A stretch of 23,475 nt of DNA, taken from IMG/VR virus record IMGVR_UViG_2529293249_000015, positions 1-23,475 of that record; one strand, 5' to 3'. The translations under genes and the position numbers were made by a program. Of this stretch, positions 268-23,475 are shown piece after piece. The stretch is from a virus (taxonomy: Duplodnaviria > Heunggongvirae > Uroviricota > Caudoviricetes). Positions within the stretch are counted from its first letter, which is position 1. Each line of letters begins with the position of its first letter. Below the pieces are notes generated by a model, which saw only the letters and a list, made by a program, of their open reading frames with translations, searched no databases and was not told the DNA's origin.

Positions 268-300
268 AAGCCCTCGCGTTGAGGGCTTTACTGATTTTTT
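268..300 (+). terminator. hairpin plus T-run between convergent grxA and ybjM
   Basis: 8-bp stem (aagccctc / gagggctt) with 5-nt loop at 268..288, followed by a T-rich stretch ending in TTTTTT at 295..300; lies between the 3' ends of convergent genes. Confidence 0.4.
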
Positions 301-665
301 CTGTGCTGTGGTTTAAACAAACTACTGATAAATAAGAAACACAGTGCCCCCAGCGCACACCAGAACACCGCGCTTAGTAACCATGCCAGCTCTTGCCAGA
401 ATGAGCGCGTCGGTGAAAAAAACAGCCGCATAATGAGCATCGAACAGGGTGCCGCCAGCATTGCGCCAAACAGAGGTTTCAGGACTTCTCTACGCTGTGA
501 AAAGAAGCTGGCGACTGCTCCAGGAAGAATGAAAAATAGCAAGCCGATTTCAGGATGCCCGGCAGCCCGAAAAGCGCCTTTCATGTGCGTCGCCAGAAAA
601 AGGCACACCACAATGAAGAGGACAAAACAGCAGATTGCCCCCGCCCAACGTTGTTTATGTTTCAC
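288..665 (-). CDS. ybjM: inner membrane protein YbjM
   Basis: 125-aa hydrophobic ORF, N-terminus MKHKQRWAGAICCF, in the expected position between grxA and ybjL. Confidence 0.8.
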   Translation of the reverse strand: MKHKQRWAGAICCFVLFIVVCLFLATHMKGAFRAAGHPEIGLLFFILPGAVASFFSQRREVLKPLFGAMLAAPCSMLIMRLFFSPTRSFWQELAWLLSAVFWCALGALCFLFISSLFKPQHRKNQ

Positions 666-934
666 TCGTTCCTCCTGACACTGCGTCTATCGAACACATT
701 TTTCGCCAGTGTGGCGTTCAGTAAGATAAAGCCGCTTCGCATTCCATGCTAATATAGGCCAACGCAATTCATATAGCCGTTGATACCTAATGTGATTACA
801 CTAGTAAAATATATTGTTACTTTACTATCGTTTAGGTGCGCTGAATGAATCTGCGCCCTGAATTCTGGTAAAAAACATTATCGTAAATTACCATTTCTTT
901 CAACAGCTTACTAGTAAACAAGAAGTTAGCCTCC

Positions 935-2620
935 GTGAATATAAACGTCGCCGAATTGTTAAATGGGAATTACATTCTGTTATTATTTGTGGTCCTCGCG
1001 CTTGGGCTATGTCTCGGAAAGTTACGACTTGGTTCGATCCAACTGGGTAATTCCATTGGCGTTTTAGTCGTATCGCTGTTATTAGGCCAACAACATTTCA
1101 GCATTAACACCGATGCGCTTAATCTTGGCTTTATGCTGTTTATTTTCTGCGTCGGGGTCGAAGCCGGACCGAACTTTTTTTCCATTTTTTTTCGCGATGG
1201 GAAAAATTACCTAATGTTAGCACTGGTGATGGTTGGCAGTGCGCTGGTGATCGCCTTAGGGTTAGGTAAGCTGTTTGGCTGGGATATTGGCCTGACGGCC
1301 GGTATGTTAGCAGGCTCTATGACGTCGACACCGGTTCTGGTCGGTGCTGGCGATACACTGCGTCATTCCGGCATGGAAAGCAGGCAGCTCTCACTGGCAC
1401 TGGATAATCTGAGCCTCGGGTATGCCTTAACCTATTTAATCGGTCTGGTGAGTTTGATTGTTGGTGCGCGTTACTTGCCGAAATTGCAGCATCAGGACTT
1501 ACAGACCAGCGCCCAGCAAATCGCCCGCGAACGTGGCCTGGACACTGATGCCAACCGTAAGGTTTATTTACCGGTGATCCGCGCCTATCGCGTCGGCCCG
1601 GAGCTGGTGGCCTGGACCGACGGCAAAAATCTGCGTGAACTGGGTATTTATCGACAAACCGGCTGCTACATTGAACGTATTCGACGTAACGGGATTCTGG
1701 CAAATCCAGACGGTGATGCCGTGCTACAAATGGGCGATGAAATAGCGTTGGTAGGCTATCCCGACGCCCATGCCCGACTCGATCCCAGCTTCCGTAACGG
1801 TAAAGAAGTTTTCGATCGTGACCTTCTCGACATGCGTATCGTCACTGAAGAAGTGGTCGTTAAAAACCATAACGCTGTAGGTAAACGTCTCGCACAACTG
1901 AAGTTGACCGATCACGGTTGCTTCCTTAACCGCGTCATTCGTAGCCAGATTGAGATGCCGATAGATGACAACGTCGTGCTTAACAAAGGTGACGTTTTAC
2001 AAGTCAGCGGTGATGCCCGTCGCGTAAAAACCATCGCCGATCGCATCGGCTTTATCTCGATTCACAGCCAGGTCACTGACCTGCTGGCATTTTGCGCCTT
2101 CTTTGTTATTGGGCTGATGATCGGGATGATCACCTTCCAGTTCAGCACATTCAGTTTCGGCATGGGGAACGCTGCCGGGTTGTTATTCGCCGGAATTATG
2201 CTGGGCTTTATGCGTGCTAACCACCCGACCTTCGGTTACATTCCGCAAGGTGCATTAAGCATGGTGAAAGAGTTCGGCTTGATGGTGTTTATGGCAGGCG
2301 TTGGTCTGAGCGCCGGTAGCGGTATTAATAACGGCCTGGGCGCGATTGGCGGTCAGATGTTGATTGCCGGATTAATTGTCAGTCTTGTGCCCGTGGTTAT
2401 CTGTTTCTTGTTCGGTGCTTATGTATTGCGAATGAACCGCGCACTGTTGTTCGGCGCAATGATGGGCGCACGCACCTGCGCGCCGGCAATGGAGATCATC
2501 AGTGATACAGCTCGCAGTAACATCCCTGCGCTGGGCTACGCGGGCACCTACGCAATCGCCAACGTCCTGCTGACGCTGGCAGGGACAATCATCGTCATGG
2601 TATGGCCAGGATTAGGATAA
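935..2620 (+). CDS. ybjL: putative AAE-family transporter YbjL
   Basis: 561-aa polytopic membrane ORF with GTG start ([20 protein letters not shown]), central soluble TrkA-C-like region, matching YbjL in length and N-terminus. Confidence 0.85.
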
Positions 2621-2855: not shown

Positions 2856-3074
2856 TCAAAGAGAGAGCGCCACCTGTCCTGATTTCATTGGATGCGGCTG
2901 AACCGGATTTGACTCTTTTGGCGTTGCAATCGAACGAACAAAAGTTTCATGGGTAACAAAAGTATGGCTGCAGTTAATGTTCTGGCACTGGTTGTAACGC
3001 TCTTTGGTCAATGAAGATACCTGAAAACTGCTGCGAGTATGGGCGGCACTTCCACACAGTGGGCAAATCATCAT
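2856..3074 (-). CDS. ogr: Ogr-family zinc-finger late transcription activator
   Basis: About 72 aa from MMICPLCGSAAHTRSS with C-x2-C ... C-x4-C pattern (CPLC ... CQNINC), resembling P2 Ogr; located directly after D as in P2. The tracked ORF extends 11 codons upstream; I take the MMICPLC start. Confidence 0.85.
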   Translation of the reverse strand: MMICPLCGSAAHTRSSFQVSSLTKERYNQCQNINCSHTFVTHETFVRSIATPKESNPVQPHPMKSGQVALSL

Positions 3075-7821: not shown

Positions 7822-8250
7822 CGTTGGCCCCGCTTCTCTGAATCGCTTTATACCGCCATTCCAGCACTTCGGTCAGCGGCATAACGTCAGTAACGGATGG
7901 CGGCCAGTGAAAAATGGTGGCGATATCTGCCACCAGATCGTCAACCGTCAGGCTGTCGGTAAAACGGCAAGCACCGACTTCTTCAACAAAAAAGTGACAA
8001 CCTCAACCGACATGGCAGTGAGATCTGCCGGGTCCATCTCTGCAATTTCCTGTGCAGTCAGTGCCGGACTGGAGATGCGGGGGATCACGGTCATCATCGC
8101 GTTTACATCCATATCCATAATGGCCTGCAGGCGTGTACCGCGCAGCGCACCGGACTGCGGTTTACGCAGCACAATTTCGGTGATTTCTGTTTTACCGCGC
8201 TTGATGGGGGTATCCAGTTGAATGGTCTTTTCAGTCTGCTTATCGCTCAT
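7815..8250 (-). CDS. E: tail assembly chaperone E+E' (product of programmed -1 frameshift)
   Basis: A -1 shift at T_TTT_TTG (complement of 7987..7993) opens a frame that I translated by hand to ...VEEVGACRFTDSL...RSGANDE and that ends at TGA (complement 7815..7817), overlapping the T start codon. Confidence 0.65.
7948..8250 (-). CDS. E: tail assembly chaperone E
   Basis: 100-aa ORF immediately upstream of T in the P2 gpE position; contains the slippery heptamer near its 3' end. Confidence 0.85.
   Translation of the reverse strand: MSDKQTEKTIQLDTPIKRGKTEITEIVLRKPQSGALRGTRLQAIMDMDVNAMMTVIPRISSPALTAQEIAEMDPADLTAMSVEVVTFLLKKSVLAVLPTA
7987..7993 (-). other. slippery heptamer T_TTT_TTG for E/E' -1 frameshift
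   Basis: Minus-strand sequence ACT TTT TTG TTG in the E frame; the same heptamer type used by P2 E/E' and the lambda G/GT family. Confidence 0.65.
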
Positions 8251-8829: not shown

Positions 8830-10002
8830 TTACGCGCTGACCTGGCTGGCGAAATTCACCAGGTACTGATCGGTGATGCGCTGACGCAGCATCAGGTTTT
8901 CAAGTGGCGGCACTGGCGTGTAGTCGTAGTCGATGGTGAATTTTCCGGCTTTCAGCGTGTCTTTGTCGTTCACCGACTCATCCAGCCAGCAATCACCACC
9001 AATGAGATAGCCCTGACTGATCAGGCTGCGCATTTTGGCGCGGATACCTTCGATAATGTCGCGGGCCAGCGACGGGTTAAGCGGTTTATCCACCGCCCAC
9101 ATGTGTGCTTCTGCCATCGTGTCCATCAGCACCTGCGCCGTGCGGGTGTAGTTTTCGAAGGCAAAGAGCGGGTCATCACTCAGGCAGCGGGAACCCCAGA
9201 AGCGGAAACCGTCTTTACGCACAAGCGTGGTGACGTCGTTCTGGTTCAGCAGACCTGCATCGGTTGCCGGGTCCTGCAGATCCCAGAACACATCTGCAGA
9301 AATTCCGGTGACACCGTTCACGCCCACGTTGGACAGGCTTTTGTGCCATCCGGTCTGCTCGTCAATTTTGGCGCGCAGACCAAGCGCACGGGCGGTGGCA
9401 TATGCCGTTGCTTCGGCATTCAGCACCGTGTCCCAGCCAGTAAAGTCAGGCCAGATCAGCATCCCTTCGCGCTGGCTGAAGTTTTCGCGGTAAGTGATCG
9501 CCTCCTGCACTGTCTTGCAGCCATACGCTGACAGGTAAGCAAATCCACGCAGGCTTTGCGCCACGCTCAGCAACTCAGTAGCTACCGCCTTGGTGTCGTG
9601 GCCTGGCACGCCGAGAATGCGCGGTTTAACGCCGAGCTGTGACTGGGCAGATAACAGGGCTTTCATACCTGTTTTTTTACCTTCAGCAGTCACTGCGCCG
9701 ATGATATTGGTCGTGGTTTCGTCTTCCGTTTCACCCTGCGGCACACGCACAACAATGGTCACGGGTTTTGCCTGGTCAGCGATGGCATCCAGCGAACGGG
9801 CCAGAGTACCTGACTCACCCGCTTTACCGCTGGCAGTCAGCACATCAGTGATCAGCACGGGTTTATTAAGAGGAAACATTTTTGCATCGGCATCATCGCC
9901 CGTGCAGACCATACCCACGATGGCGGTGCTCACCGTGGTAATAGATCGGGTGCCTTCGTTGACTTCAACAACGCGCACCCCGTGGTGGTAATCCTGAGCC
10001 AT
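8830..10002 (-). CDS. FI: contractile tail sheath protein FI
   Basis: 390-aa ORF ([21 protein letters not shown]) resembling P2 gpFI; strong AGGAGG RBS upstream. Confidence 0.9.
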
Positions 10003-10078
10003 AGTGGCGAACCTCCTGATTGGATTAGGCTTCGCCCTATGTTGAAGTGATTGTGCCTGACAAACAGCTAAGCGCAGT

Positions 10079-10096
10079 TGTACCGTTATTCACACA
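10079..10096 (-). promoter_or_regulatory. candidate Ogr-dependent late promoter element upstream of FI (P_F)
   Basis: TGT-N12-ACA dyad (coding strand TGTGTGAATAACGGTACA), then 34 nt, then CAACAT, then about 40 nt to the FI start codon. Confidence 0.45.
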
Positions 10097-10144: not shown

Positions 10145-10711
10145 TCAGGGGGATTCATTACTCTTATTTGCCGGAAATTTTCTATAAATTGTGGAAACAC
10201 CCACATCAAAAATCAGTGCAATACGCTGTCTTGATTCTCCGCCCTCGAGTAAGCGTCCAATCTGTGCCCACTGTTCGGTGGTCAACTTAGGACGGCGTCC
10301 ACCTACTCTGCCTTTATCACGAGCTGCAGCCAGCCCCGCCCTGGTACGTTCAACTATCAGTTCGCGTTCCATTTCAGCTAGGGCCCCCATGACATGAAAA
10401 AAGAAACGGCCCATTGGGGTGCTGGTATCAATACTGTCAGTCAGGCTTCGGAAATTCACGCCACACTGACGCAACTCTTCTATCAGCGTAACAAGATGCC
10501 GCATACTGCGCCCCAACCTGTCCAGCTTCCAGACAACCAGAGTGTCTCCTGCCGATAGTGTCCTGAGCAGTTTTTTAAGCCCCGGTCTGTCGGACTTAGT
10601 GCCACTGATTTTATCCTCAAAAATCCGCTCACATCCCGCGCAGTTCAGTGCATTACGTTGCAAATCGGTGTTCTGGTCATTTGTTGACACGCGTACATAG
10701 CCAATAAGCAT
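10145..10711 (-). CDS. serine-recombinase DNA invertase (Gin/Hin/Cin/Pin family)
   Basis: 188 aa from MLIGYVRVSTNDQNTDLQRNAL with catalytic Ser motif and C-terminal helix-turn-helix; near-identical in stretches to Gin/Hin. The tracked ORF has a 15-codon upstream extension; the ATG at 10711 has an RBS. Confidence 0.9.
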   Translation of the reverse strand: MLIGYVRVSTNDQNTDLQRNALNCAGCERIFEDKISGTKSDRPGLKKLLRTLSAGDTLVVWKLDRLGRSMRHLVTLIEELRQCGVNFRSLTDSIDTSTPMGRFFFHVMGALAEMERELIVERTRAGLAAARDKGRVGGRRPKLTTEQWAQIGRLLEGGESRQRIALIFDVGVSTIYRKFPANKSNESP

Positions 10712-10778
10712 GATCAATCCCCTGAATAAAAACCGTGGATGATGCCAGTTAGCCATTATCTCTGCATTTTCATAAACG

Positions 10779-10809
10779 TTGGTTTGGGAGAAGCGGCAAA
10801 ACGGAATGT
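10779..10809. repeat. left inverted repeat of invertible segment (recombination site)
   Basis: 31-bp sequence ttggtttgggagaagcggcaaaacggaatgt, a perfect reverse-complement match to 12293..12323. Confidence 0.8.
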
Positions 10810-11134
10810 GGGAACAGGTTCAGGTCAGATACCGGATATGAGTAGCTTTGCATCAGCACTCTCTTCGAGTGGCTACCAGAAATTACCTTCTGGACTAATT
10901 ATTCAGTGGGGGGCGGCTGTTGCTGGAATTGGCAGCACTGGGGGTACAGGAAATGTAGTCTCATTCCCTGTTGCATTCCCCAGATATTGCGCCCAAATAA
11001 TTACATCTTACGATAATGGAAGCTCGTCAATCATTGCTGGTGCAGCAGGAAACCAAACTACCACTCAATTTCTTTTACGTTGTGGTGCAACCGGTGGTAG
11101 TTATAACTTCCGCTGGTTAGCCGTGGGGTATTAA
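10781..11134 (+). other. alternative tail-fibre C-terminal (receptor-binding) cassette, currently unexpressed orientation
   Basis: Begins in frame at the repeat with GLGEAAKRNVG, the same residues found at the H crossover point, and continues as a different fibre tip (...QIPDMSSFASALSSSGYQKLPSGLIIQWG...). Confidence 0.7.
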
Positions 11135-11136
11135 TT

Positions 11137-11580
11137 ATGGATAACTACTATTTTTCACCTTCGACTTTGGCATTTTATCCTGAAGATCTCATGTTGTTAT
11201 ATGAAGCAGCAGGAACTTTACCTGATGATATTATTTCTGTGCCACATGAAATATTTGCTACTTATTCAGGAGAGCCACCACGAGGAAAAAAGCGAGGTAC
11301 TACAGAAGATGGGCAGCCCACCTGGAGTAATCTGCCGCCTTTAAGTCATGAGGAAGAAGTTGAGGTTGCGGACGCCCAAAGACAGTTTCGTATTGATGAG
11401 GCGAACGACTACATGAATAGTAAGCAATGGCCAGGTAAAGCCGCTATTGGTCGTCTGAAAGGCGAGGAACTGGCGCAATATAATTCGTGGCTGGATTATC
11501 TGGACGCACTGGAGCTGGTCGATACTTCCGGTGCGCCAGATATTGAATGGCCTACACCTCCGGTAACTCAGGCCAGCTAA
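11137..11580 (+). CDS. tail-fibre assembly protein, alternative-orientation copy
   Basis: 147-aa ORF ending in the conserved tail-fibre-assembly motif VDTSGAPDIEWPTPP; follows the alternative fibre tip. Confidence 0.8.
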   Translation: MDNYYFSPSTLAFYPEDLMLLYEAAGTLPDDIISVPHEIFATYSGEPPRGKKRGTTEDGQPTWSNLPPLSHEEEVEVADAQRQFRIDEANDYMNSKQWPGKAAIGRLKGEELAQYNSWLDYLDALELVDTSGAPDIEWPTPPVTQAS

Positions 11581-11947
11581 TCTCAGGAGCCGTCGAAGTG
11601 TCGACGGCTTTTACTTCTTTTTTGTAGTCCATCCAGGCAGATAGTTTTTCTTTATCTGTACTGCTGATATCACCAAGCATTAATTCCACCCGCCAGTCAG
11701 CTGTGACATTATCGGCATGAGCAAGTAACTGCATTCGCTGATTTTCAGCACGTGCGACATAATCAATCGCCGGAGATTTCAGTACCGGTAAACCATTTTC
11801 ATCTGACGTGATTAATTTCCCCCCTTCCTGCTGTCCGGCAATTAATTCATTGTATAAGTCTGTACTTATCTCAACAATGTCAGCAGACATGTCGCTGTTT
11901 ATACCATCAAAGAAAAAACCATTAGTCGATTTTGAGAAATAAATCAT
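11552..11947 (-). CDS. tail-fibre assembly protein, active-orientation copy (P2 G position)
   Basis: 131 aa from MIYFSKSTNGFFFDG, ending in VDTSTAPEISWPELP; starts just after the H stop; overlaps the opposite assembly gene by 29 bp at the 3' ends. Confidence 0.8.
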   Translation of the reverse strand: MIYFSKSTNGFFFDGINSDMSADIVEISTDLYNELIAGQQEGGKLITSDENGLPVLKSPAIDYVARAENQRMQLLAHADNVTADWRVELMLGDISSTDKEKLSAWMDYKKEVKAVDTSTAPEISWPELPEV

Positions 11948-11955
11948 AGATATAC

Positions 11956-13371
11956 CTATACACCGATTGCTACCCAAAAACAGGACCTTTCATATTTGAC
12001 AATTTCTCCCTGAGATATACCGCCAACAATTATATAGAACTGTGATTTGCTGATATCAGAACAGTTCGCTATGCCCATTGCAGATATACCAGCCACCGAC
12101 GTTGTATGTGGCACAGCCAACAGCGCAAGTGAACGATTTGGGAATGTTACCGGGTAAGTCACCGTATAGTTTGATGCTCCACTGACAATACCCCACTGAA
12201 TAATCAGACCTGAAGGGAGTTTTTGAAACCCCGTTGATGAAAGTGAACTGGCAAACGCCGCCATATCCGGAATTTGGTTTTGCTCGTTACCTACATTCCG
12301 TTTTGCCGCTTCTCCCAAACCAAGGTATGTGAGAAGACCAGTTACATCCTTTCCACTCAAATTAGTCAGCGTATTGTCCAGCGGTTGTTTACCTGCCAGT
12401 GCATTAAGCATTGTCGTGGCAAAGTTCGGGTCATTCCCCAGCGCCGCCGCCAGTTCGTTCAGTGTATCCAGTGCCGCAGGTGCAGAACCCACCATTGCCG
12501 CAATCGCCGATTTCACAAATGCCGTGGTGGCAATTTGTGTATTGTTGACCGACTGTGCCGCAGTAGGTGCGGTTGGCGTTCCGGTGAGTGCCGGACTCGA
12601 CAGCGGCGCTTTCAGTGCCAGCGCATTGTTAATGGTGGTACTGAATTTCGGATCATTGTTAATGGCTGCGGCTATTTCTTTCAGCGTGTCCAGCGTGGCT
12701 GGCGCACCATTAATAAGGGCCGTCAGTGCCGCCTGTACAAACGCAGTGGTCGCAACCTGCGTGGTATTATTCCCCGCCGCTGGCGTTGGCGCTTTGGGGG
12801 TTCCGGTAAATGTCGGGCTGGCTTTTGGCGCGTACTGTGAATGCGGGTCCGGTGCGGCAAGATGTTTTGCCATCTGATCATCCGCGTACACCTTCAGCTC
12901 CAGTGCCTTGTCATCCACATACTTGCGGGTTGCCAGCACTACAGCAGGGTCGATTTTCAGGGTGATATTGTCCGTGCTGCTGGTAATCAGCACCATGCGC
13001 ACGGTCTGAGTGCGCCCGCTACCTTCAGCCAGTTGCGGCTTATAGCTTTCCGGGCAGTTGCCCACGGCAATCAATGCCCCGGACTCATCAAACAAGCCCA
13101 CTTCACGTATCCACCAACCGCCCTCGTTTTCAGGGATCACCTGTTCGGCAATAATCTGGCTGCTGTTCTGCGGGTCGATATAAAGCATATTCAGCGCAGC
13201 CCGGCGTTTCTCATTTACCAGTGCCGTCTGCTTTGCGTCCGGCGTTGGCAATACTCCACCGCCATCGCCCACCGCCATATGGGTAATTTTTAGCGGCACA
13301 CCGAGCGCGGCGGCGCTGGCAAGTTTCGCCGCGCCAATATCCGTCAGCAGGGTATAAAATTTTGTGCTCAT
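11956..13371 (-). CDS. H: tail fibre protein H
   Basis: 471-aa ORF with P2 gpH-like N-terminus (MSTKFYTLLTDIGAAKLASAAALGVP); the C-terminal 122 aa lie inside the invertible segment. Confidence 0.9.
   Translation of the reverse strand: MSTKFYTLLTDIGAAKLASAAALGVPLKITHMAVGDGGGVLPTPDAKQTALVNEKRRAALNMLYIDPQNSSQIIAEQVIPENEGGWWIREVGLFDESGALIAVGNCPESYKPQLAEGSGRTQTVRMVLITSSTDNITLKIDPAVVLATRKYVDDKALELKVYADDQMAKHLAAPDPHSQYAPKASPTFTGTPKAPTPAAGNNTTQVATTAFVQAALTALINGAPATLDTLKEIAAAINNDPKFSTTINNALALKAPLSSPALTGTPTAPTAAQSVNNTQIATTAFVKSAIAAMVGSAPAALDTLNELAAALGNDPNFATTMLNALAGKQPLDNTLTNLSGKDVTGLLTYLGLGEAAKRNVGNEQNQIPDMAAFASSLSSTGFQKLPSGLIIQWGIVSGASNYTVTYPVTFPNRSLALLAVPHTTSVAGISAMGIANCSDISKSQFYIIVGGISQGEIVKYERSCFWVAIGV
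12293..12323. repeat. right inverted repeat of invertible segment (recombination site, inside H)
   Basis: Reverse complement is identical to 10779..10809; encodes GLGEAAKRNVG in the H frame. Confidence 0.8.
12382..12816 (-). repeat. tandem duplication of a roughly 70-aa module within H
   Basis: Two adjacent units, TGTPKAPTPAAGNNTTQVATTAFVQAALTALINGAPATLDTLKEIAAAINNDPKFSTTINNALALKAP and TGTPTAPTAAQSVNNTQIATTAFVKSAIAAMVGSAPAALDTLNELAAALGNDPNFATTMLNALAGKQP. Confidence 0.6.
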
Positions 13372-14874: not shown

Positions 14875-15220
14875 TCTCTGCTCCTGTTGATACGGAAAGG
14901 GACACAGGCACACCGTTATTCCGCCGCCCGGTCAGCTCCACCACCATTGAACCGTCAAAATTGCTGTTGATGGTGATGGAATCCAGCGTCAACCGTGGCT
15001 CCCAGCGACTCAGCGCCACATACACTGCCGACATGACCTGCAGGCGTAATGCCGGATTTTGTGGCTGATCTATCAGTGCCGACAGCAGGGAACCATATTC
15101 CCGGCGGGCAATACGGCTACCCTGCGGTGTCAGCAGAATGTCCCGCACCGACTGGCGCAGATGATCAATATCAGTAATGACTTTGCCGCTGGTATTGTTC
15201 ATCCCGCTATAAAGCGTCAT
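14861..15220 (-). CDS. W: baseplate assembly protein W (gp25-like)
   Basis: 119-aa ORF between V and J in the P2 gpW position. Confidence 0.85.
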   Translation of the reverse strand: MTLYSGMNNTSGKVITDIDHLRQSVRDILLTPQGSRIARREYGSLLSALIDQPQNPALRLQVMSAVYVALSRWEPRLTLDSITINSNFDGSMVVELTGRRNNGVPVSLSVSTGAENGSD

Positions 15221-15795
15221 ACCGGGCCTCCGGTTGTATCGCCGCCTTTCAGGACGCCAGTATGCTGATGCGCATCAACCACGATCCCGTTAGAACTCAT
15301 CGCTCCGCCGCCCTGGGTAACGCCACCATTGATCACCACTTCGCTGTTAATGCGCGTGCGGTCAGCCTCCAGTACAAACTCACTGGTTTTCATGGTGATG
15401 TTGTCAGCAGCCTCAATGACCATTGATTTGATGCCCCTGACATACCAGCGCCCGGTGGCGGGTTCGTATTCAAACCAGCCACCGTCAGGATGTTCTGTCA
15501 CGCAGGCGTCCGCCGACGTCGACGGTGGTGCGAACTGATTCGAATAAACAGCGGGCAGCGCAAAGGCGGTTTCCAGATTGCCGCCCAGACTCAGCAGCAC
15601 CACCTGCTCACCTTCCGATGGTCGCCACCATGTACGGGCATTCCCGGCACGCAGCGTCAGCCAGCTGATCCAGTTGGTTTCAAGCTCGCCCGTTTTCACC
15701 CGGCAAAGCCAGTTTTCCCTGTCCACTTCGGTGACTACCCCTGTGCGGATCAGGTTGGTGATAAGGCGCATGATTTCGGTTAATTGTGCGTTCAT
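15217..15795 (-). CDS. V: baseplate spike/hub protein V
   Basis: 192-aa ORF (MNAQLTEIMRLITNLIRTGVV); an in-frame stop four codons upstream fixes the ATG; no Shine-Dalgarno sequence upstream. Confidence 0.85.
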   Translation of the reverse strand: MNAQLTEIMRLITNLIRTGVVTEVDRENWLCRVKTGELETNWISWLTLRAGNARTWWRPSEGEQVVLLSLGGNLETAFALPAVYSNQFAPPSTSADACVTEHPDGGWFEYEPATGRWYVRGIKSMVIEAADNITMKTSEFVLEADRTRINSEVVINGGVTQGGGAMSSNGIVVDAHQHTGVLKGGDTTGGPV

Positions 15796-15841
15796 AGGGA
15801 AAGGTTGCCATCAGGGGAAGAAAGGCGGCAGTGCTGCAACT

Positions 15842-15859
15842 TGTATCAGTGCTGATACA
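15842..15859 (-). promoter_or_regulatory. perfect palindrome TGTATCAG-TG-CTGATACA upstream of V (candidate P_V Ogr site)
   Basis: Fits TGT-N12-ACA; followed 34 nt later by CAACCT, as at the FI and O sites; only 46 nt separate the element from the V ATG. Confidence 0.4.
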
Positions 15860-15863
15860 AAGA

Positions 15864-16310
15864 TCACCCCGCCAGCCATTGCAGAATCATGTCGCGGGTC
15901 ATTGCCTCAACATCATCATTTACACCCAGAAGGCGACGCTCTGCGTAACGCACCTCCGGTCCCTTACGACTGACGCGATCTCGCAGGCCGTAATGGTGAA
16001 CGCGGGCAATGCGCTGCACCTTGCCTTCAAACTGCACGCTGGCAGAGTCGGCGCTGGCGGCAGTTTTCAGGTATTTTGTGGTGCGCAGCTTTGTAAACAT
16101 CTGACGTTTGATGCGCCCCTTTTTGCTGCGTGCTGTTACTCTGCGCGGCTCATAACTGCTGCCATCTGGATTGCGCTGCATCCTGATGTTCTGTTGCTGT
16201 GTCCGGCGCAGTTCCTGCGCCAGCTGACGCATCATGCGGCTTCTTGCGACTGGCTCCAGATTCGCCAGCAAGGCACTCAGCCAGTCGTCTACTTTCTGCA
16301 GTTCAGCCAC
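15864..16310 (-). CDS. S: tail completion protein S
   Basis: 148-aa ORF with GTG start one codon after an in-frame stop, overlapping the R stop. Confidence 0.8.
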   Translation of the reverse strand: MAELQKVDDWLSALLANLEPVARSRMMRQLAQELRRTQQQNIRMQRNPDGSSYEPRRVTARSKKGRIKRQMFTKLRTTKYLKTAASADSASVQFEGKVQRIARVHHYGLRDRVSRKGPEVRYAERRLLGVNDDVEAMTRDMILQWLAG

Positions 16311-16734
16311 GTTTCACCGTCCACATTTCTTCAGGTTCATCGGGTTCCGTTATCGCTTCAACGCTCGACACACTTCCGTCAGTGCTGACCAGCACACGCT
16401 CCGTCAGCTGCAGGTTCAGGCTGATATCACAGACATCGTTGCGCAGAATATCCACTTCAAAGGTGAATAGCTTTTCCCGTAACGTCGGGTTATTGATGGC
16501 ATCAGACTGGTTATCCCGCAGCCACAGCAAAACCGGGGCCATCAGCAGATTCTGGTCGCCGCTGAAATCTTCAATCACCACGTTAAGGGTGTAGCGGTAC
16601 TCCCATGACATGGAGCTGGCCCCGGTGGCAACCAGCGAACCGTTATCCACAAACAGATGCAGTTTGTCCGGGTTATTACGGACATAAGGCACTGCTTTAT
16701 TGAGGGCGTGGCGCAGGGATTGTGGTTTGTTCAC
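16303..16734 (-). CDS. R: tail completion protein R
   Basis: 143 aa from GTG (VNKPQSLRHALNKAV...) preceded by AGGAGCGAAACA; the tracked ORF begins 7 codons upstream at TTG. Confidence 0.75.
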   Translation of the reverse strand: MNKPQSLRHALNKAVPYVRNNPDKLHLFVDNGSLVATGASSMSWEYRYTLNVVIEDFSGDQNLLMAPVLLWLRDNQSDAINNPTLREKLFTFEVDILRNDVCDISLNLQLTERVLVSTDGSVSSVEAITEPDEPEEMWTVKRG

Positions 16735-20837: not shown

Positions 20838-21671
20838 TCAGCAATTGGTCAGAGTGTCAGCGGGGGCGTTACCGCCTGTTGCACGCTGGCGGTAGTCCTG
20901 GCGGCTGTCTTCATGACTTAGCTTATTCACCAGTTCGTTAAAGGCGGTCTGCTGTGCCTGCAGGGCAGTCTCCAGCTCAGACAGACGTTCTTCCTGCTCA
21001 GACAGGGATTTTTCGGTGCGTGCGCTCAGGTTCTGCTGCTCAGTGGCGACCAGCTCCACGGCCTTATGCACATCAGAGAACCGGGCGTCATCGGACTGCT
21101 CTTTTTTGGTGAACAGCGCCGTGACACGGGCAAACAGGGACGGTTTGTCATCCTGGATTTCTTCCAGTTCGATCACCGTTTCCTCTGCAGCGGTAAAGAG
21201 ATTGGCAGGATTCTGCTTGCGGTTTGCCAGCGGGTTATGGGCTGCACTGGCGCTGAATGTCAGCATTTCAGTGCCCAGACTGGCAGGGTCATCAGTGGCA
21301 GCCAGGCCGACCAGGTAGGCTTTGCCCGTATCAGCGAACTTCGGGCTGACTTCCATAGAGGTGAATAATTTCTGGCCTTTTTTCACCAGCTCCACCAGGG
21401 ACTCCGTTGGCTCAACGTCGGCATACAGCGCCATCTTGCCTGCCAGCGGACCTTCCGTGATTTCTTCAGCAAACAGCGCCGTCACCTTGCCGTAGCGGTT
21501 AAAGGTGCTGTCCGGCAGATAAGACTTGATGTGCTCAAGGTTAATCAGCGCGGTGTACACCGTCGGGTTGTAGCTGGCTGCCATCTGTTCAAGCCATTCA
21601 CGCTGGATTTCGCGTCCGTCGGTGGTGGCACCTTCCACCCCGATGCGAAAACGCTTTACTTTCACTGTCAT
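20838..21671 (-). CDS. O: capsid scaffolding protein O
   Basis: 277-aa ORF (MTVKVKRFRIGVEGATTDGREI) with acidic, coiled-coil-like C-terminal half; P2 gpO-like; GGAG RBS. Confidence 0.9.
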   Translation of the reverse strand: MTVKVKRFRIGVEGATTDGREIQREWLEQMAASYNPTVYTALINLEHIKSYLPDSTFNRYGKVTALFAEEITEGPLAGKMALYADVEPTESLVELVKKGQKLFTSMEVSPKFADTGKAYLVGLAATDDPASLGTEMLTFSASAAHNPLANRKQNPANLFTAAEETVIELEEIQDDKPSLFARVTALFTKKEQSDDARFSDVHKAVELVATEQQNLSARTEKSLSEQEERLSELETALQAQQTAFNELVNKLSHEDSRQDYRQRATGGNAPADTLTNC

Positions 21672-21749
21672 GAGCCGTGCTCCGTTAGAAAAAACTTACT
21701 GGAGCCTTATGGTTGCGGTGATAGGGGCAGTGAAACAATGCGCGGTATT

Positions 21750-21767
21750 TGTACCGACAACCACACA
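21750..21767 (-). promoter_or_regulatory. candidate Ogr-dependent late promoter element in the O-P intergenic region (P_O, possibly shared with P_P)
   Basis: TGT-N12-ACA dyad (minus-strand reading TGTGTGGTTGTCGGTACA), then 34 nt, then CAACCA, about 78 nt before the O ATG; shares TGTGTG-N6-CGGTACA with the FI site. Confidence 0.45.
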
Positions 21768-21813
21768 AACCGCAGGCGGGGAAAGCCTTCATTCAAGGCT
21801 GTAGGTTTGTTCC

Positions 21814-23475
21814 ATGAACACCACACTGACACCCGCAGATCTCGATCCCCGTCGGCAGGCCATGCTGCTGTACTTTCAGGGATACCGCGTAGCCCGCATT
21901 GCTGAAATGCTGGGCGAGAAAGTTGCAACCGTTCACAGCTGGAAAAAACGCGACAAGTGGGGTGACTATGGGCCGCTGGATCAGATGCAGCTCACCACCG
22001 CCGCACGCTACTGCCAGCTCATTATGAAGGAGCACAAAGAAGGGAAAGATTTCAAAGAGATTGACCTGCTGGCGCGCCAGTCGGAACGCCACGCGCGGAT
22101 CGGCAAGTTTAACAATGGCGGCAACGAAGCCGACTTAAACCCTAACGTCGCCAACCGCAACAAAGGCCCGCGCCGTCAGCCGGAAAAGAATGTTTTCACC
22201 GATGAGCAGATTGAGAAGCTGGAAGAAATCTTCCATTCCTCCATGTTCAACTACCAGCGCCACTGGTGGGAAGCCGGAAAAACCAACCGCATCCGCAACC
22301 TGCTGAAGTCACGCCAGATCGGCGCGACCTTTTACTTTGCCCGTGAAGCCCTGATTGACGCTCTGCTTACCGGACGTAACCAGATTTTCCTTTCCGCCAG
22401 CAAGGCACAGGCCCACGTCTTTAAGCAGTACATCATCGACTTCGCTAAAGAAGTGGAGGTGGAGCTGAAAGGCGATCCGATGGTGCTTCCTAACGGGGCC
22501 ACGCTTTACTTCCTCGGCACCAATGCCCGCACGGCCCAGAGTTATCACGGCAACCTGTATCTGGATGAATATTTCTGGATACCGAAATTCCAGGAGCTGC
22601 GCAAAGTGGCTTCCGGTATGGCTATTCACAAAAAATGGCGACAGACCTATTTTTCCACGCCATCCAGCCTGACACACAGTGCTTATCCGTTCTGGTCCGG
22701 TGCGCTGTTCAACCGTGGGCGCAACAAAGCCGATAAGGTGGACATCGACCTGTCCCACAGCAATCTGGCCCCCGGCCTGCTGTGCGCAGACGGACAATAC
22801 CGCCAGATAGTCACCGTGGAAGATGCGGTGCGCGGCGGCTGTAACCTGTTCGACCTTGACCAGTTGCGCATGGAATACAGCCCGGACGAATACCAGAACC
22901 TGCTGATGTGTGAGTTCGTGGACGATCTCGCGTCCGTGTTCCCGCTCAGCGAACTGCAGGCGTGCATGGTGGACAGCTGGGAAGTCTGGACCGACTTTCA
23001 TGCACTGGCCCTGCGCCCGTTTGGCTGGCGCGAAGTGTGGATCGGTTATGACCCGGCAAAAGGTACGCAGAACGGCGACAGTGCCGGATGCGTGGTGGTG
23101 GCTCCGCCAGCCGTACCGGGCGGTAAATTCCGCATTCTTGAGCGTCACCAGTGGCGCGGGATGGACTTCCGCGCTCAGGCTGACGCCATCAAAAAACTGA
23201 CCGAACAGTACAACGTGACTTATATCGGTATCGACTCAACCGGCGTTGGTCACGGGGTTTACGAGAACGTGAAAGCATTCTTTCCTGCCGTCCGGGAGTT
23301 TGTCTACAACCCCAACGTTAAAAACGCCCTGGTGCTCAAGGCCTACGACATTATCAGCCACCGCCGTCTGGAGTTTGACGCCGGGCACACCGACATTGCG
23401 CAATCATTTATGGCAATCCGTCGCGCTACCACCGCCAGCGGCAACCGCCCGACCTATGAAGCCAGCCGCAGCGAA
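21814..23475 (+). CDS. P: terminase large (ATPase) subunit P, 5' partial at window end
   Basis: Open frame from ATG 21814 to the window end with no stop (554 codons, hand-translated: MNTTLTPADLDPRRQAMLLYFQGYRVARIAEML...). Absent from the supplied ORF track only because it has no stop codon in the window. Divergent from O as in P2. Confidence 0.9.
   Translation, partial: MNTTLTPADLDPRRQAMLLYFQGYRVARIAEMLGEKVATVHSWKKRDKWGDYGPLDQMQLTTAARYCQLIMKEHKEGKDFKEIDLLARQSERHARIGKFNNGGNEADLNPNVANRNKGPRRQPEKNVFTDEQIEKLEEIFHSSMFNYQRHWWEAGKTNRIRNLLKSRQIGATFYFAREALIDALLTGRNQIFLSASKAQAHVFKQYIIDFAKEVEVELKGDPMVLPNGATLYFLGTNARTAQSYHGNLYLDEYFWIPKFQELRKVASGMAIHKKWRQTYFSTPSSLTHSAYPFWSGALFNRGRNKADKVDIDLSHSNLAPGLLCADGQYRQIVTVEDAVRGGCNLFDLDQLRMEYSPDEYQNLLMCEFVDDLASVFPLSELQACMVDSWEVWTDFHALALRPFGWREVWIGYDPAKGTQNGDSAGCVVVAPPAVPGGKFRILERHQWRGMDFRAQADAIKKLTEQYNVTYIGIDSTGVGHGVYENVKAFFPAVREFVYNPNVKNALVLKAYDIISHRRLEFDAGHTDIAQSFMAIRRATTASGNRPTYEASRSE

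Follow-up and report, generated by a model that had tools for sequence, protein, structure and literature searches.

Late promoters and leaderless gene V of phage P2

The few leaderless genes known in Escherichia coli come from lambda, P2 and Tn1721, with Christie & Calendar 1985 cited for P2 (PMC4633059). In the GenBank record of P2 (NC_001895), the start of the V operon is annotated at 10308, the very position where the V coding sequence (10308..10943) begins, and an activator site is annotated at 10239-10266, centred 55.5 nt upstream of that start. The late activator Ogr binds to inverted repeats with centres at about -55 from the starts of late promoters and requires RNA polymerase's alpha subunit (PMC3152322); late transcription in P2 is known to need both the activator and the C-terminal domain of alpha (PMC3152322, PMC11434276), rpoA109/ogr suppressor genetics have also been noted (PMC11434276), and the consensus TGT-N12-ACA has been stated for PP, PO, PV and PF (PMC3931495). 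A literature search for leaderless gene V in P2 or P2-like phages returned nothing beyond the citation in PMC4633059. The dRNA-seq table of Salmonella SL1344 gives start sites for the ogr homologue of SopEPhi and, at some distance, for the sheath gene, while no start site for SopEPhi V is found among the rows listed (PMC3293720).

The prophage and its S-V junction

The window, i.e. the whole stretch of 23,475 nucleotides analyzed here, is a P2-like prophage with late genes mostly on the minus strand, as read from its open reading frames and the annotation of a related record. Its genes are arranged in the order P / O N M L X Y K lysA lysB R S / V W J I H G / FI FII E T U D / ogr. NC_049342, the annotated record closest to the window, is identical over the 401-bp S-V junction that was queried; it is not collinear with the window past the tail-fibre region (288-bp offset), and gene-level numbers were computed on the window itself. 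The S-V junction shares 100% identity with that of Escherichia phage 500465-1 (Peduoviridae, Wadgaonvirus) and 82% identity with that of Fels-2. A tRNA/tmRNA scan of the window for an attachment site gave no match.

Gene S (15864..16310, minus strand), the final gene of the O operon, encodes a tail completion or virion morphogenesis protein (Pfam Phage_tail_S, 8e-42) and ends with a TGA stop codon at 15866-15864. Gene V (15217..15795, minus strand) encodes the baseplate central spike, a protein of 192 aa with the Pfam domains Phage_base_V (6.2e-18) and Apex (6.7e-06), and heads the late operon V-W-J-I-H-G with an ATG at 15795-15793. The intergenic region (15863..15796, minus strand) is 68 bp, in agreement with the original prediction; at this distance the S stop codon neither overlaps nor adjoins the V start codon, as it would in translationally coupled genes. 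In relatives, the same junction is a hot spot for cargo genes, whose products contain SIR2, TIR, GmrSD/Schlafen, AIPR, KAP NTPase, FRG or OLD-like ATPase domains, and the site is empty in the window.

A terminator scan identified no intrinsic terminator in the 68-bp gap, as its sole match in the region lies inside S and is at chance level. Since S is not followed by a terminator, transcripts of the O operon that read through S and carry the V AUG internally are likely, and such read-through probably occurs; an additional V transcript with its 5′ end well inside S, named at the outset as a result that would speak against a leaderless V, may therefore exist.

The predicted late promoter of V

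The intergenic region contains a predicted binding site for an Ogr-type activator (15842..15859, minus strand), which conforms to TGT-N12-ACA and is a perfect 8+8 palindrome, TGTATCAG-CA-CTGATACA (in full, TGTATCAGCACTGATACA), with arms that can be extended to 9 bp (15860-15841). The centre of the dyad had been spelled TG, as on the plus strand, while the minus strand reads CA; it is located at 15850.5, a distance of 55.5 nt from the A with which the V ATG begins. The -10-like hexamer CAACCT (15802..15807, minus strand) occupies -12..-7 relative to this A and is separated from the dyad by exactly 34 nt (15841-15808), confirming the spacing that had been claimed. Directly upstream of the hexamer is a TG dinucleotide (15809..15810, minus strand; -15/-14), which may function as an extended -10 motif, and directly downstream is the all-pyrimidine spacer TTCCCT (15796..15801, minus strand; -6 to -1), which reaches to the ATG. 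As all residues from -6 to -1 are pyrimidines, the first purine offered to RNA polymerase is the A of the V ATG, and by the general rules of start-site selection this A would sit at the preferred distance of 7 nt from the -10 hexamer. The promoter scan detected no sigma-70 -35/-10 promoter in 15500-16400, and no -35 element is found at V.

The cognate activator is provisionally identified as the product of the ogr homologue (2856..3074, minus strand), a C4 zinc-finger late activator of 72 aa (Pfam Ogr_Delta, 8.8e-22), in which the cysteine residues of the zinc finger C-X2-C-X22-C-X4-C (Cys4, Cys7, Cys30 and Cys35) are all conserved. It is 51%, 54% and 68% identical to P2 Ogr, 186 B and the Fels-2 protein, respectively, and presumably binds the V dyad. 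The V element therefore has the features of a P2-type late promoter, namely the dyad, a weak -10 without a -35 element, a cognate activator and a position at the head of a late operon, with a start that is predicted.

The same arrangement was also said to precede FI and O, and it is indeed present at both, as TGTGTGAATAACGGTACA-34-CAACAT and TGTGTGGTTGTCGGTACA-34-CAACCA, respectively. The FI late promoter (10039..10096, minus strand) is composed of the dyad at 10096-10079, 34 nt and CAACAT at 10044-10039; from its predicted start near 10032, the leader ahead of the FI ATG at 10002 would be about 30 nt long and include AGGAGG. The O late promoter (21710..21767, minus strand) is composed of the dyad at 21767-21750, 34 nt and CAACCA at 21715-21710, and its predicted start near 21703 would leave a leader of about 32 nt with a Shine-Dalgarno (SD) sequence ahead of the O ATG at 21671. 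The composite TGT-N12-ACA-N34-CAAC occurs three times in the window versus 0.14 expected, and only at the heads of the V, FI and O operons. Neither the bare TGT-N12-ACA (8 matches in the window versus 6.0 expected) nor perfect palindromes with 8-bp arms (4 versus 2.3 expected) are unusual alone; with these counts near chance, the argument rests on the position of the element and on its conservation in relatives.

The V start codon and its 5′ region

V was predicted to have no SD sequence, and this holds: its duplex with the anti-SD sequence (-1.8 kcal/mol) is the weakest among the 24 genes of the window, the remaining genes ranging from -3.1 to -11.0 kcal/mol, with values of -9.5, -6.6 and -9.5 kcal/mol for W, J and I, respectively. 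An in-frame stop codon had been placed four codons upstream of V. The TGA at 15813-15811 (minus strand) is in fact six codons upstream, while the exclusion of an earlier start stands, since the five codons that follow it (TGG CAA CCT TTC CCT) include no possible start codon. V starts with ATG, whereas R, S and D in the window start with GTG. The N-terminal Met-Asn of gpV aligns with those of P2 gpV and 186 Orf32, and this conservation fixes the assignment of the start codon.

A second ATG is present in frame at codon 9 (15771-15769), and V would have a 24-nt leader if this were its true start and the first ATG a mis-assignment. This candidate was rejected as exceedingly improbable: no SD sequence lies ahead of the second ATG, the residues that align with P2 gpV and 186 Orf32 run from Met-Asn onward and Met9 is not conserved, and the automated annotation of NC_049342 takes the first ATG. 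When the mRNA is taken to start on the A of the first ATG, its first 50-80 nt are predicted to fold weakly (z about -1.2, not significant) with the AUG unpaired, which is compatible with a leaderless V, though not diagnostic.

Conservation of the promoter-ATG geometry in relatives

A scan of viral contigs (IMG/VR) yielded 80 loci encoding gpV proteins 88-100% identical to that of the window. Upstream sequence was sufficient at 79 of them, giving 38 distinct sequences that fall into 22 classes, defined by dyad-to-ATG spacers less than 80% identical between classes. Between the classes, sequence similarity ends at the V ATG. A perfect TGT-N12-ACA is nevertheless found in every one of the 22 classes, with its centre 54.5-57.5 nt from the ATG's A; 14 classes have it at 55.5 nt, and the dyad is 1-2 nt nearer or further in the other 8.

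When these classes were combined with P2, 186, Fels-2 and phages of Yersinia, Klebsiella, Salmonella and Ralstonia (30 representatives), the -10 signature NANNNT was located at exactly -12..-7 in 23 of the 30 V upstream regions and one position further upstream in the remaining 7, as compared with 0-6 occurrences at most other offsets scanned. Of these promoters, 24 carry a pyrimidine at -1, while G at -14 and T at -15 are found in 17 and 12 of them, respectively. V starts with ATG in all 30 representatives. Their anti-SD energies have a median of -1.5 kcal/mol, and the few lower values that were checked, such as that of AGAGG in 186, arise from sequences too far upstream to act as an SD. The dyad-ATG distance, the -10 at -12..-7, the ATG and the absence of an SD thus appear largely conserved among the 30 V regions in spite of unrelated spacers.

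The same figures bear on whether transcription might begin a few nucleotides upstream of the ATG, at the promoter described above, and leave a leader of about 1-5 nt. The range of dyad-to-ATG distances among classes and the 7 promoters with an upstream-shifted -10 signature would allow this, and, with the dyad off by 1-2 nt in 8 of the classes, a V leader of 1-2 nt is equally compatible with the data. The P2 V start, moreover, was reportedly mapped in 1985 by S1 nuclease, a method of limited resolution that is said to be accurate to only a nucleotide or two. Such a leader is nonetheless unlikely here, as TTCCCT offers no purine before the A of the ATG, which is 7 nt from the -10, and as the P2 record puts the start on the A itself. 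Very short leaders of this kind still lack an SD and behave functionally as leaderless (PMC3293720).

Start on the A of the V ATG is the reading that agrees best with P2. The original prediction had placed the start at or within a few nt of this A and had proposed a comparison with the S-V junction of P2, and there the annotated V-operon start coincides with the opening base of V; the distance of the dyad from the predicted start (55.5 nt) likewise matches the location of Ogr sites at about -55. The S-V spacer is thus very probably the orthologue of P2 PV, with a leaderless V mRNA that would start at the A of the ATG, a conclusion drawn from homology to a mapped promoter and from positional conservation, both of which support the leaderless mRNA that had been suggested.

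S could be located at 77 of the gpV loci, 49 of which have the 68-bp junction, while 28 carry cargo of 0.6-2.2 kb between S and V. This cargo is mostly on the opposite strand, and the dyad, the -10 and the ATG keep their geometry beside V. Dependence of V on coupling to S, which was named at the outset as a result that would speak against a leaderless V, is therefore unlikely: coupling is ruled out in the 28 cargo-bearing phages by the cargo itself, and their promoter-ATG geometry is the same as that of the others.

These loci also weigh on the proposal that V is made mainly from read-through of the O operon via S, with an internal AUG used either by S1-dependent initiation or by 70S ribosomes scanning after the S stop codon. 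Consistent with such expression are the lack of an intrinsic terminator between S and V, the pyrimidine-rich 68-nt spacer and an AUG that is unpaired in the fold of the read-through RNA. V is, in addition, evidently coupled to S in the Peduoviridae phages Klebsiella 3LV2017, P88_4B11 and ST16-OXA48phi5.4, in which the two genes overlap. Read-through as the main source of V is, however, very unlikely in the window. A spacer of 68 nt far exceeds the normal distances of termination-reinitiation, and an out-of-frame AUG (15811-15809) would catch scanning ribosomes. The three overlapping lineages all lack the dyad and differ at the start of V, P88_4B11 having a GGAGG SD and a GTG start codon and 3LV2017 the G-rich GGGGGT; they illustrate what a leadered, evidently coupled V looks like. 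Read-through would also leave unexplained both the retention of the promoter geometry in the 28 relatives with cargo and the locking of the -10 signature at -12..-7 from the ATG.

The palindrome itself might act in RNA rather than as a DNA site for the activator, as a hairpin that terminates or stabilizes the O-operon transcript, for it lies 4 nt past the S stop codon and a 9-bp stem is possible in the read-through RNA. This has hardly any likelihood. The palindrome is followed by AGUUGCAGC with no U-run and is not called by the terminator scan, while conservation in relatives is confined to the TGT...ACA ends and to where these stand with respect to the V ATG, the inner 12 nt often not being self-complementary. 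The element, furthermore, stays beside V and not S when cargo is inserted, and a like element heads FI and O/P. As a terminator, the palindrome was rejected on its lack of a U-run and of conservation as a hairpin.

Proposed expression of V

Expression of V as a leaderless first cistron could proceed as follows. Late in infection, the Ogr-family activator of the prophage would bind the TGT-N12-ACA dyad about 55 bp upstream and, as does P2 Ogr, recruit host RNA polymerase via its alpha subunit to a promoter without a -35 element, where only the weak -10 CAACCT and the upstream TG are offered to the polymerase. Transcription would start at the first available purine, the A (15795) of the V ATG, which is 7 nt beyond the -10, and the resulting V-W-J-I-H-G mRNA would begin with pppAUGAAC and carry no SD for V. 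A ribosome with initiator tRNA may then bind the 5′-terminal AUG of V by the leaderless (70S/IF2) route, while the genes downstream of V would each rely on a strong SD of their own. Initiation at a 5′-terminal AUG independently of an SD is a general property of leaderless mRNAs (PMC4633059, PMC3293720). Counted against a leaderless V was the inefficiency of leaderless translation in E. coli, given that V is essential. Lower output of gpV than of the other baseplate and fibre proteins is plausible, and would match a trimeric spike present in three copies per virion.

As a discovery the locus matters little, as the leaderless V mRNA of P2 is among the oldest examples and the window very probably carries the orthologue; a leaderless V here is a correct rediscovery of an already known property of P2 and not a new phenomenon. 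Its value is rather for annotation and engineering of P2-like prophages, as the entire V expression signal would span about 65 bp, from the dyad through to the ATG, a block which stays intact when defence cargo inserts just upstream, and as the promoter geometry allows the V start codon to be fixed. The promoter-to-AUG distance is kept across unrelated spacers, and probably likewise for P outside the P2/186 lineage, which suggests that a leaderless first cistron has been selected for in the late operons of a large phage family.

The start of terminase gene P

Gene P, which encodes the large subunit of terminase, starts on the plus strand (start region 21802..21816) with an ATG at 21814, in agreement with the annotation of NC_049342, and has TAGGTT at -12..-7. 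Between this ATG and the centre of the one dyad that O and P share (21750-21767), the distance is 55.5 nt. In relatives, TAGGTT is replaced by TATGTT, by which the only possible SD (AGG) is lost and the -10 is improved. A dyad-to-P-ATG spacing of 46-47 nt is also found in Fels-2, Klebsiella ST15-OXA48phi14.1, Ralstonia RsoM1USA and Burkholderia SBP7, as well as in phiCTX when its P is taken to start at an internal ATG. The exceptions are the two phages studied by experiment, P2 and 186, which have a GAGG SD for P, with a mapped leader of 23 nt in P2.

Judged from these sequences, P may follow V as the second late cistron to be leaderless in most of the family, and no mention of a leaderless P was found in the searchable literature. 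Whether leaderless expression is a conserved design rule of the late promoters of Peduoviridae, applying to two of the four late operons here, we consider evenly balanced. If true, the first cistrons of the packaging and baseplate operons would be translated leaderless in most P2-like phages, and several V and P start codons recorded in databases for phiCTX-like phages would be wrong.

Comparison with known systems

The closest counterpart is P2 PV, which is Ogr-dependent in P2 and resembles the V promoter of the window in its activator site centred about 55 nt upstream, in the absence of both a -35 element and an SD, in its CA-rich -10 (CAATCT in P2, CAACCT in the window) and in the position of V as the first gene of V-W-J-I-H-G. 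The two differ in several respects. The P2 sequence at V reads CAATCT-CACATGC-ATG, so that 7 nt separate the -10 from the ATG versus 6 nt in the window; the P2 dyad is imperfect, whereas that of the window is a perfect 8+8 palindrome; and orf30 and a terminator lie between S and V in P2, as opposed to 68 bp without a terminator. The gpV proteins share only 47% identity, and the V start has been measured in P2 while it is predicted in the window.

In phage 186, the V homologue orf32 is separated from S by a spacer of 69 bp, is preceded by CATTCT-TTGCACT-ATG and has no usable SD, all of which resemble the window, and the activator B is likewise of the C4 zinc-finger type and shares 54% identity with the product of the window's ogr homologue. 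186 differs in that only the TGT half-site is recognizable and that its record annotates no promoter there.

The textbook leaderless mRNA, cI transcribed from PRM of lambda, is similar to V in starting at the A of its AUG without an SD, from a weak activator-dependent promoter of a temperate phage (PMC4633059, PMC3293720). It differs in that CI binds next to the -35 and in that its product is a regulator of the lysogen and not a late virion protein. CI contacts sigma. The promoters Psid and PLL of P4 and PF, PO and PP of P2 belong with the V promoter in using the same activator family and TGT-N12-ACA at about -55 (PMC3931495, PMC3152322), but they produce leadered mRNAs with an SD, the leaders in P2 being about 23-40 nt long.

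Start regions of P and V

The start region of P, the gene encoding the terminase large subunit on the + strand, lies with the predicted activator dyad common to O and P at window 21750-21816, where 55.5 nt separate the dyad centre from the P start. The hexamer at -12 to -7 (counted from the A of the start ATG) reads TAGGTT in the window and TATGTT in relatives, and no convincing Shine-Dalgarno (SD) sequence was found upstream of P in the window. As judged from this sequence, the dyad-to-ATG geometry of P is of the same putatively leaderless type as that at V, the baseplate spike gene; in P2 and 186, P instead carries GAGG as its SD, and its leader is 23 nt long. Among the phages compared (L098-L102), the spacing found in the window recurs in Fels-2 (L098, 19747) and in Klebsiella, Ralstonia and Burkholderia phages, and phiCTX P matches it if an internal ATG is taken as the start.

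In phiCTX-type phages, the ATG codons encoding MNDF... (V) and MNAAVEI... (P) each follow a TGT-N13-ACA dyad after 47 nt. The database starts, an ATG 9 nt upstream for V (Pseudomonas phage BR319a, L093, 392-403) and a GTG 21 nt upstream for P (phiCTX, L101, 280-303), fall within the predicted -10/spacer of the late promoters and are therefore probably too long.

The V late promoter (PV) carries a TG at -15/-14 (window 15809-15810), a candidate extended -10 preceding a weak -10 hexamer. Position -14 is G in 17 of the 30 V promoters compared. The TG is not present in the window promoters of FI and O. Three Peduoviridae lineages, represented by Klebsiella 3LV2017, Escherichia P88_4B11 and Klebsiella ST16-OXA48phi5.4 (V start regions at L089 398, L090 392 and L091 401), have overlapping S and V genes and no dyad near V. 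P88_4B11 V has a GTG start with a GGAGG SD, and 3LV2017 V has a G-rich GGGGGT. PV is missing from these three lineages, in which V is evidently leadered and coupled to S.

Prophage boundary and tail-fibre segment

The left end of the window (288-2620) is host DNA, comprising a ybjM-like gene (288-665, - strand) and a ybjL-like permease gene with Asp-Al_Ex/TrkA_C domains (935-2620, + strand), which places the prophage boundary between ~2620 and ogr (2856). A scan for tRNA and tmRNA genes found none in the window. Over the 401 bp queried at the S-V junction, the sequence matches phage 500465-1 (NC_049342) exactly; a 288-bp coordinate offset in the tail-fibre region and a 1-nt difference upstream of P (tgttcc in the window, tgtgcc in NC_049342) indicate a prophage related, but not identical, to 500465-1. 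The invertible tail-fibre segment (10145-11980) encodes a Cin/Hin-type serine invertase (10145-10756, - strand), an alternative fibre tip (10739-11134, + strand) and an alternative fibre-assembly chaperone (11137-11580, + strand), facing the active, G-like chaperone (11552-11977, - strand).

Cargo at the S-V junction

The S-V junction is an empty site in the window (15796-15863), whereas 28 of the 77 close relatives carry AT-rich cargo of 0.6-2.2 kb there, mostly on the opposite strand and inserted directly upstream of the PV dyad. Relatives with cargo upstream of position 8001 include L026, L033-L036, L042, L044, L046, L048, L049, L051, L053, L054, L068, L071, L074, L077, L078, L081 and L083. 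The encoded domains include SIR2_2, TIR_2, GmrSD_N+Schlafen, AIPR, KAP_NTPase, FRG and the OLD-like AAA_15/AAA_21, and from these sequences the junction seems to be a hot spot for anti-phage defence. In P2, the equivalent position is occupied by orf30.
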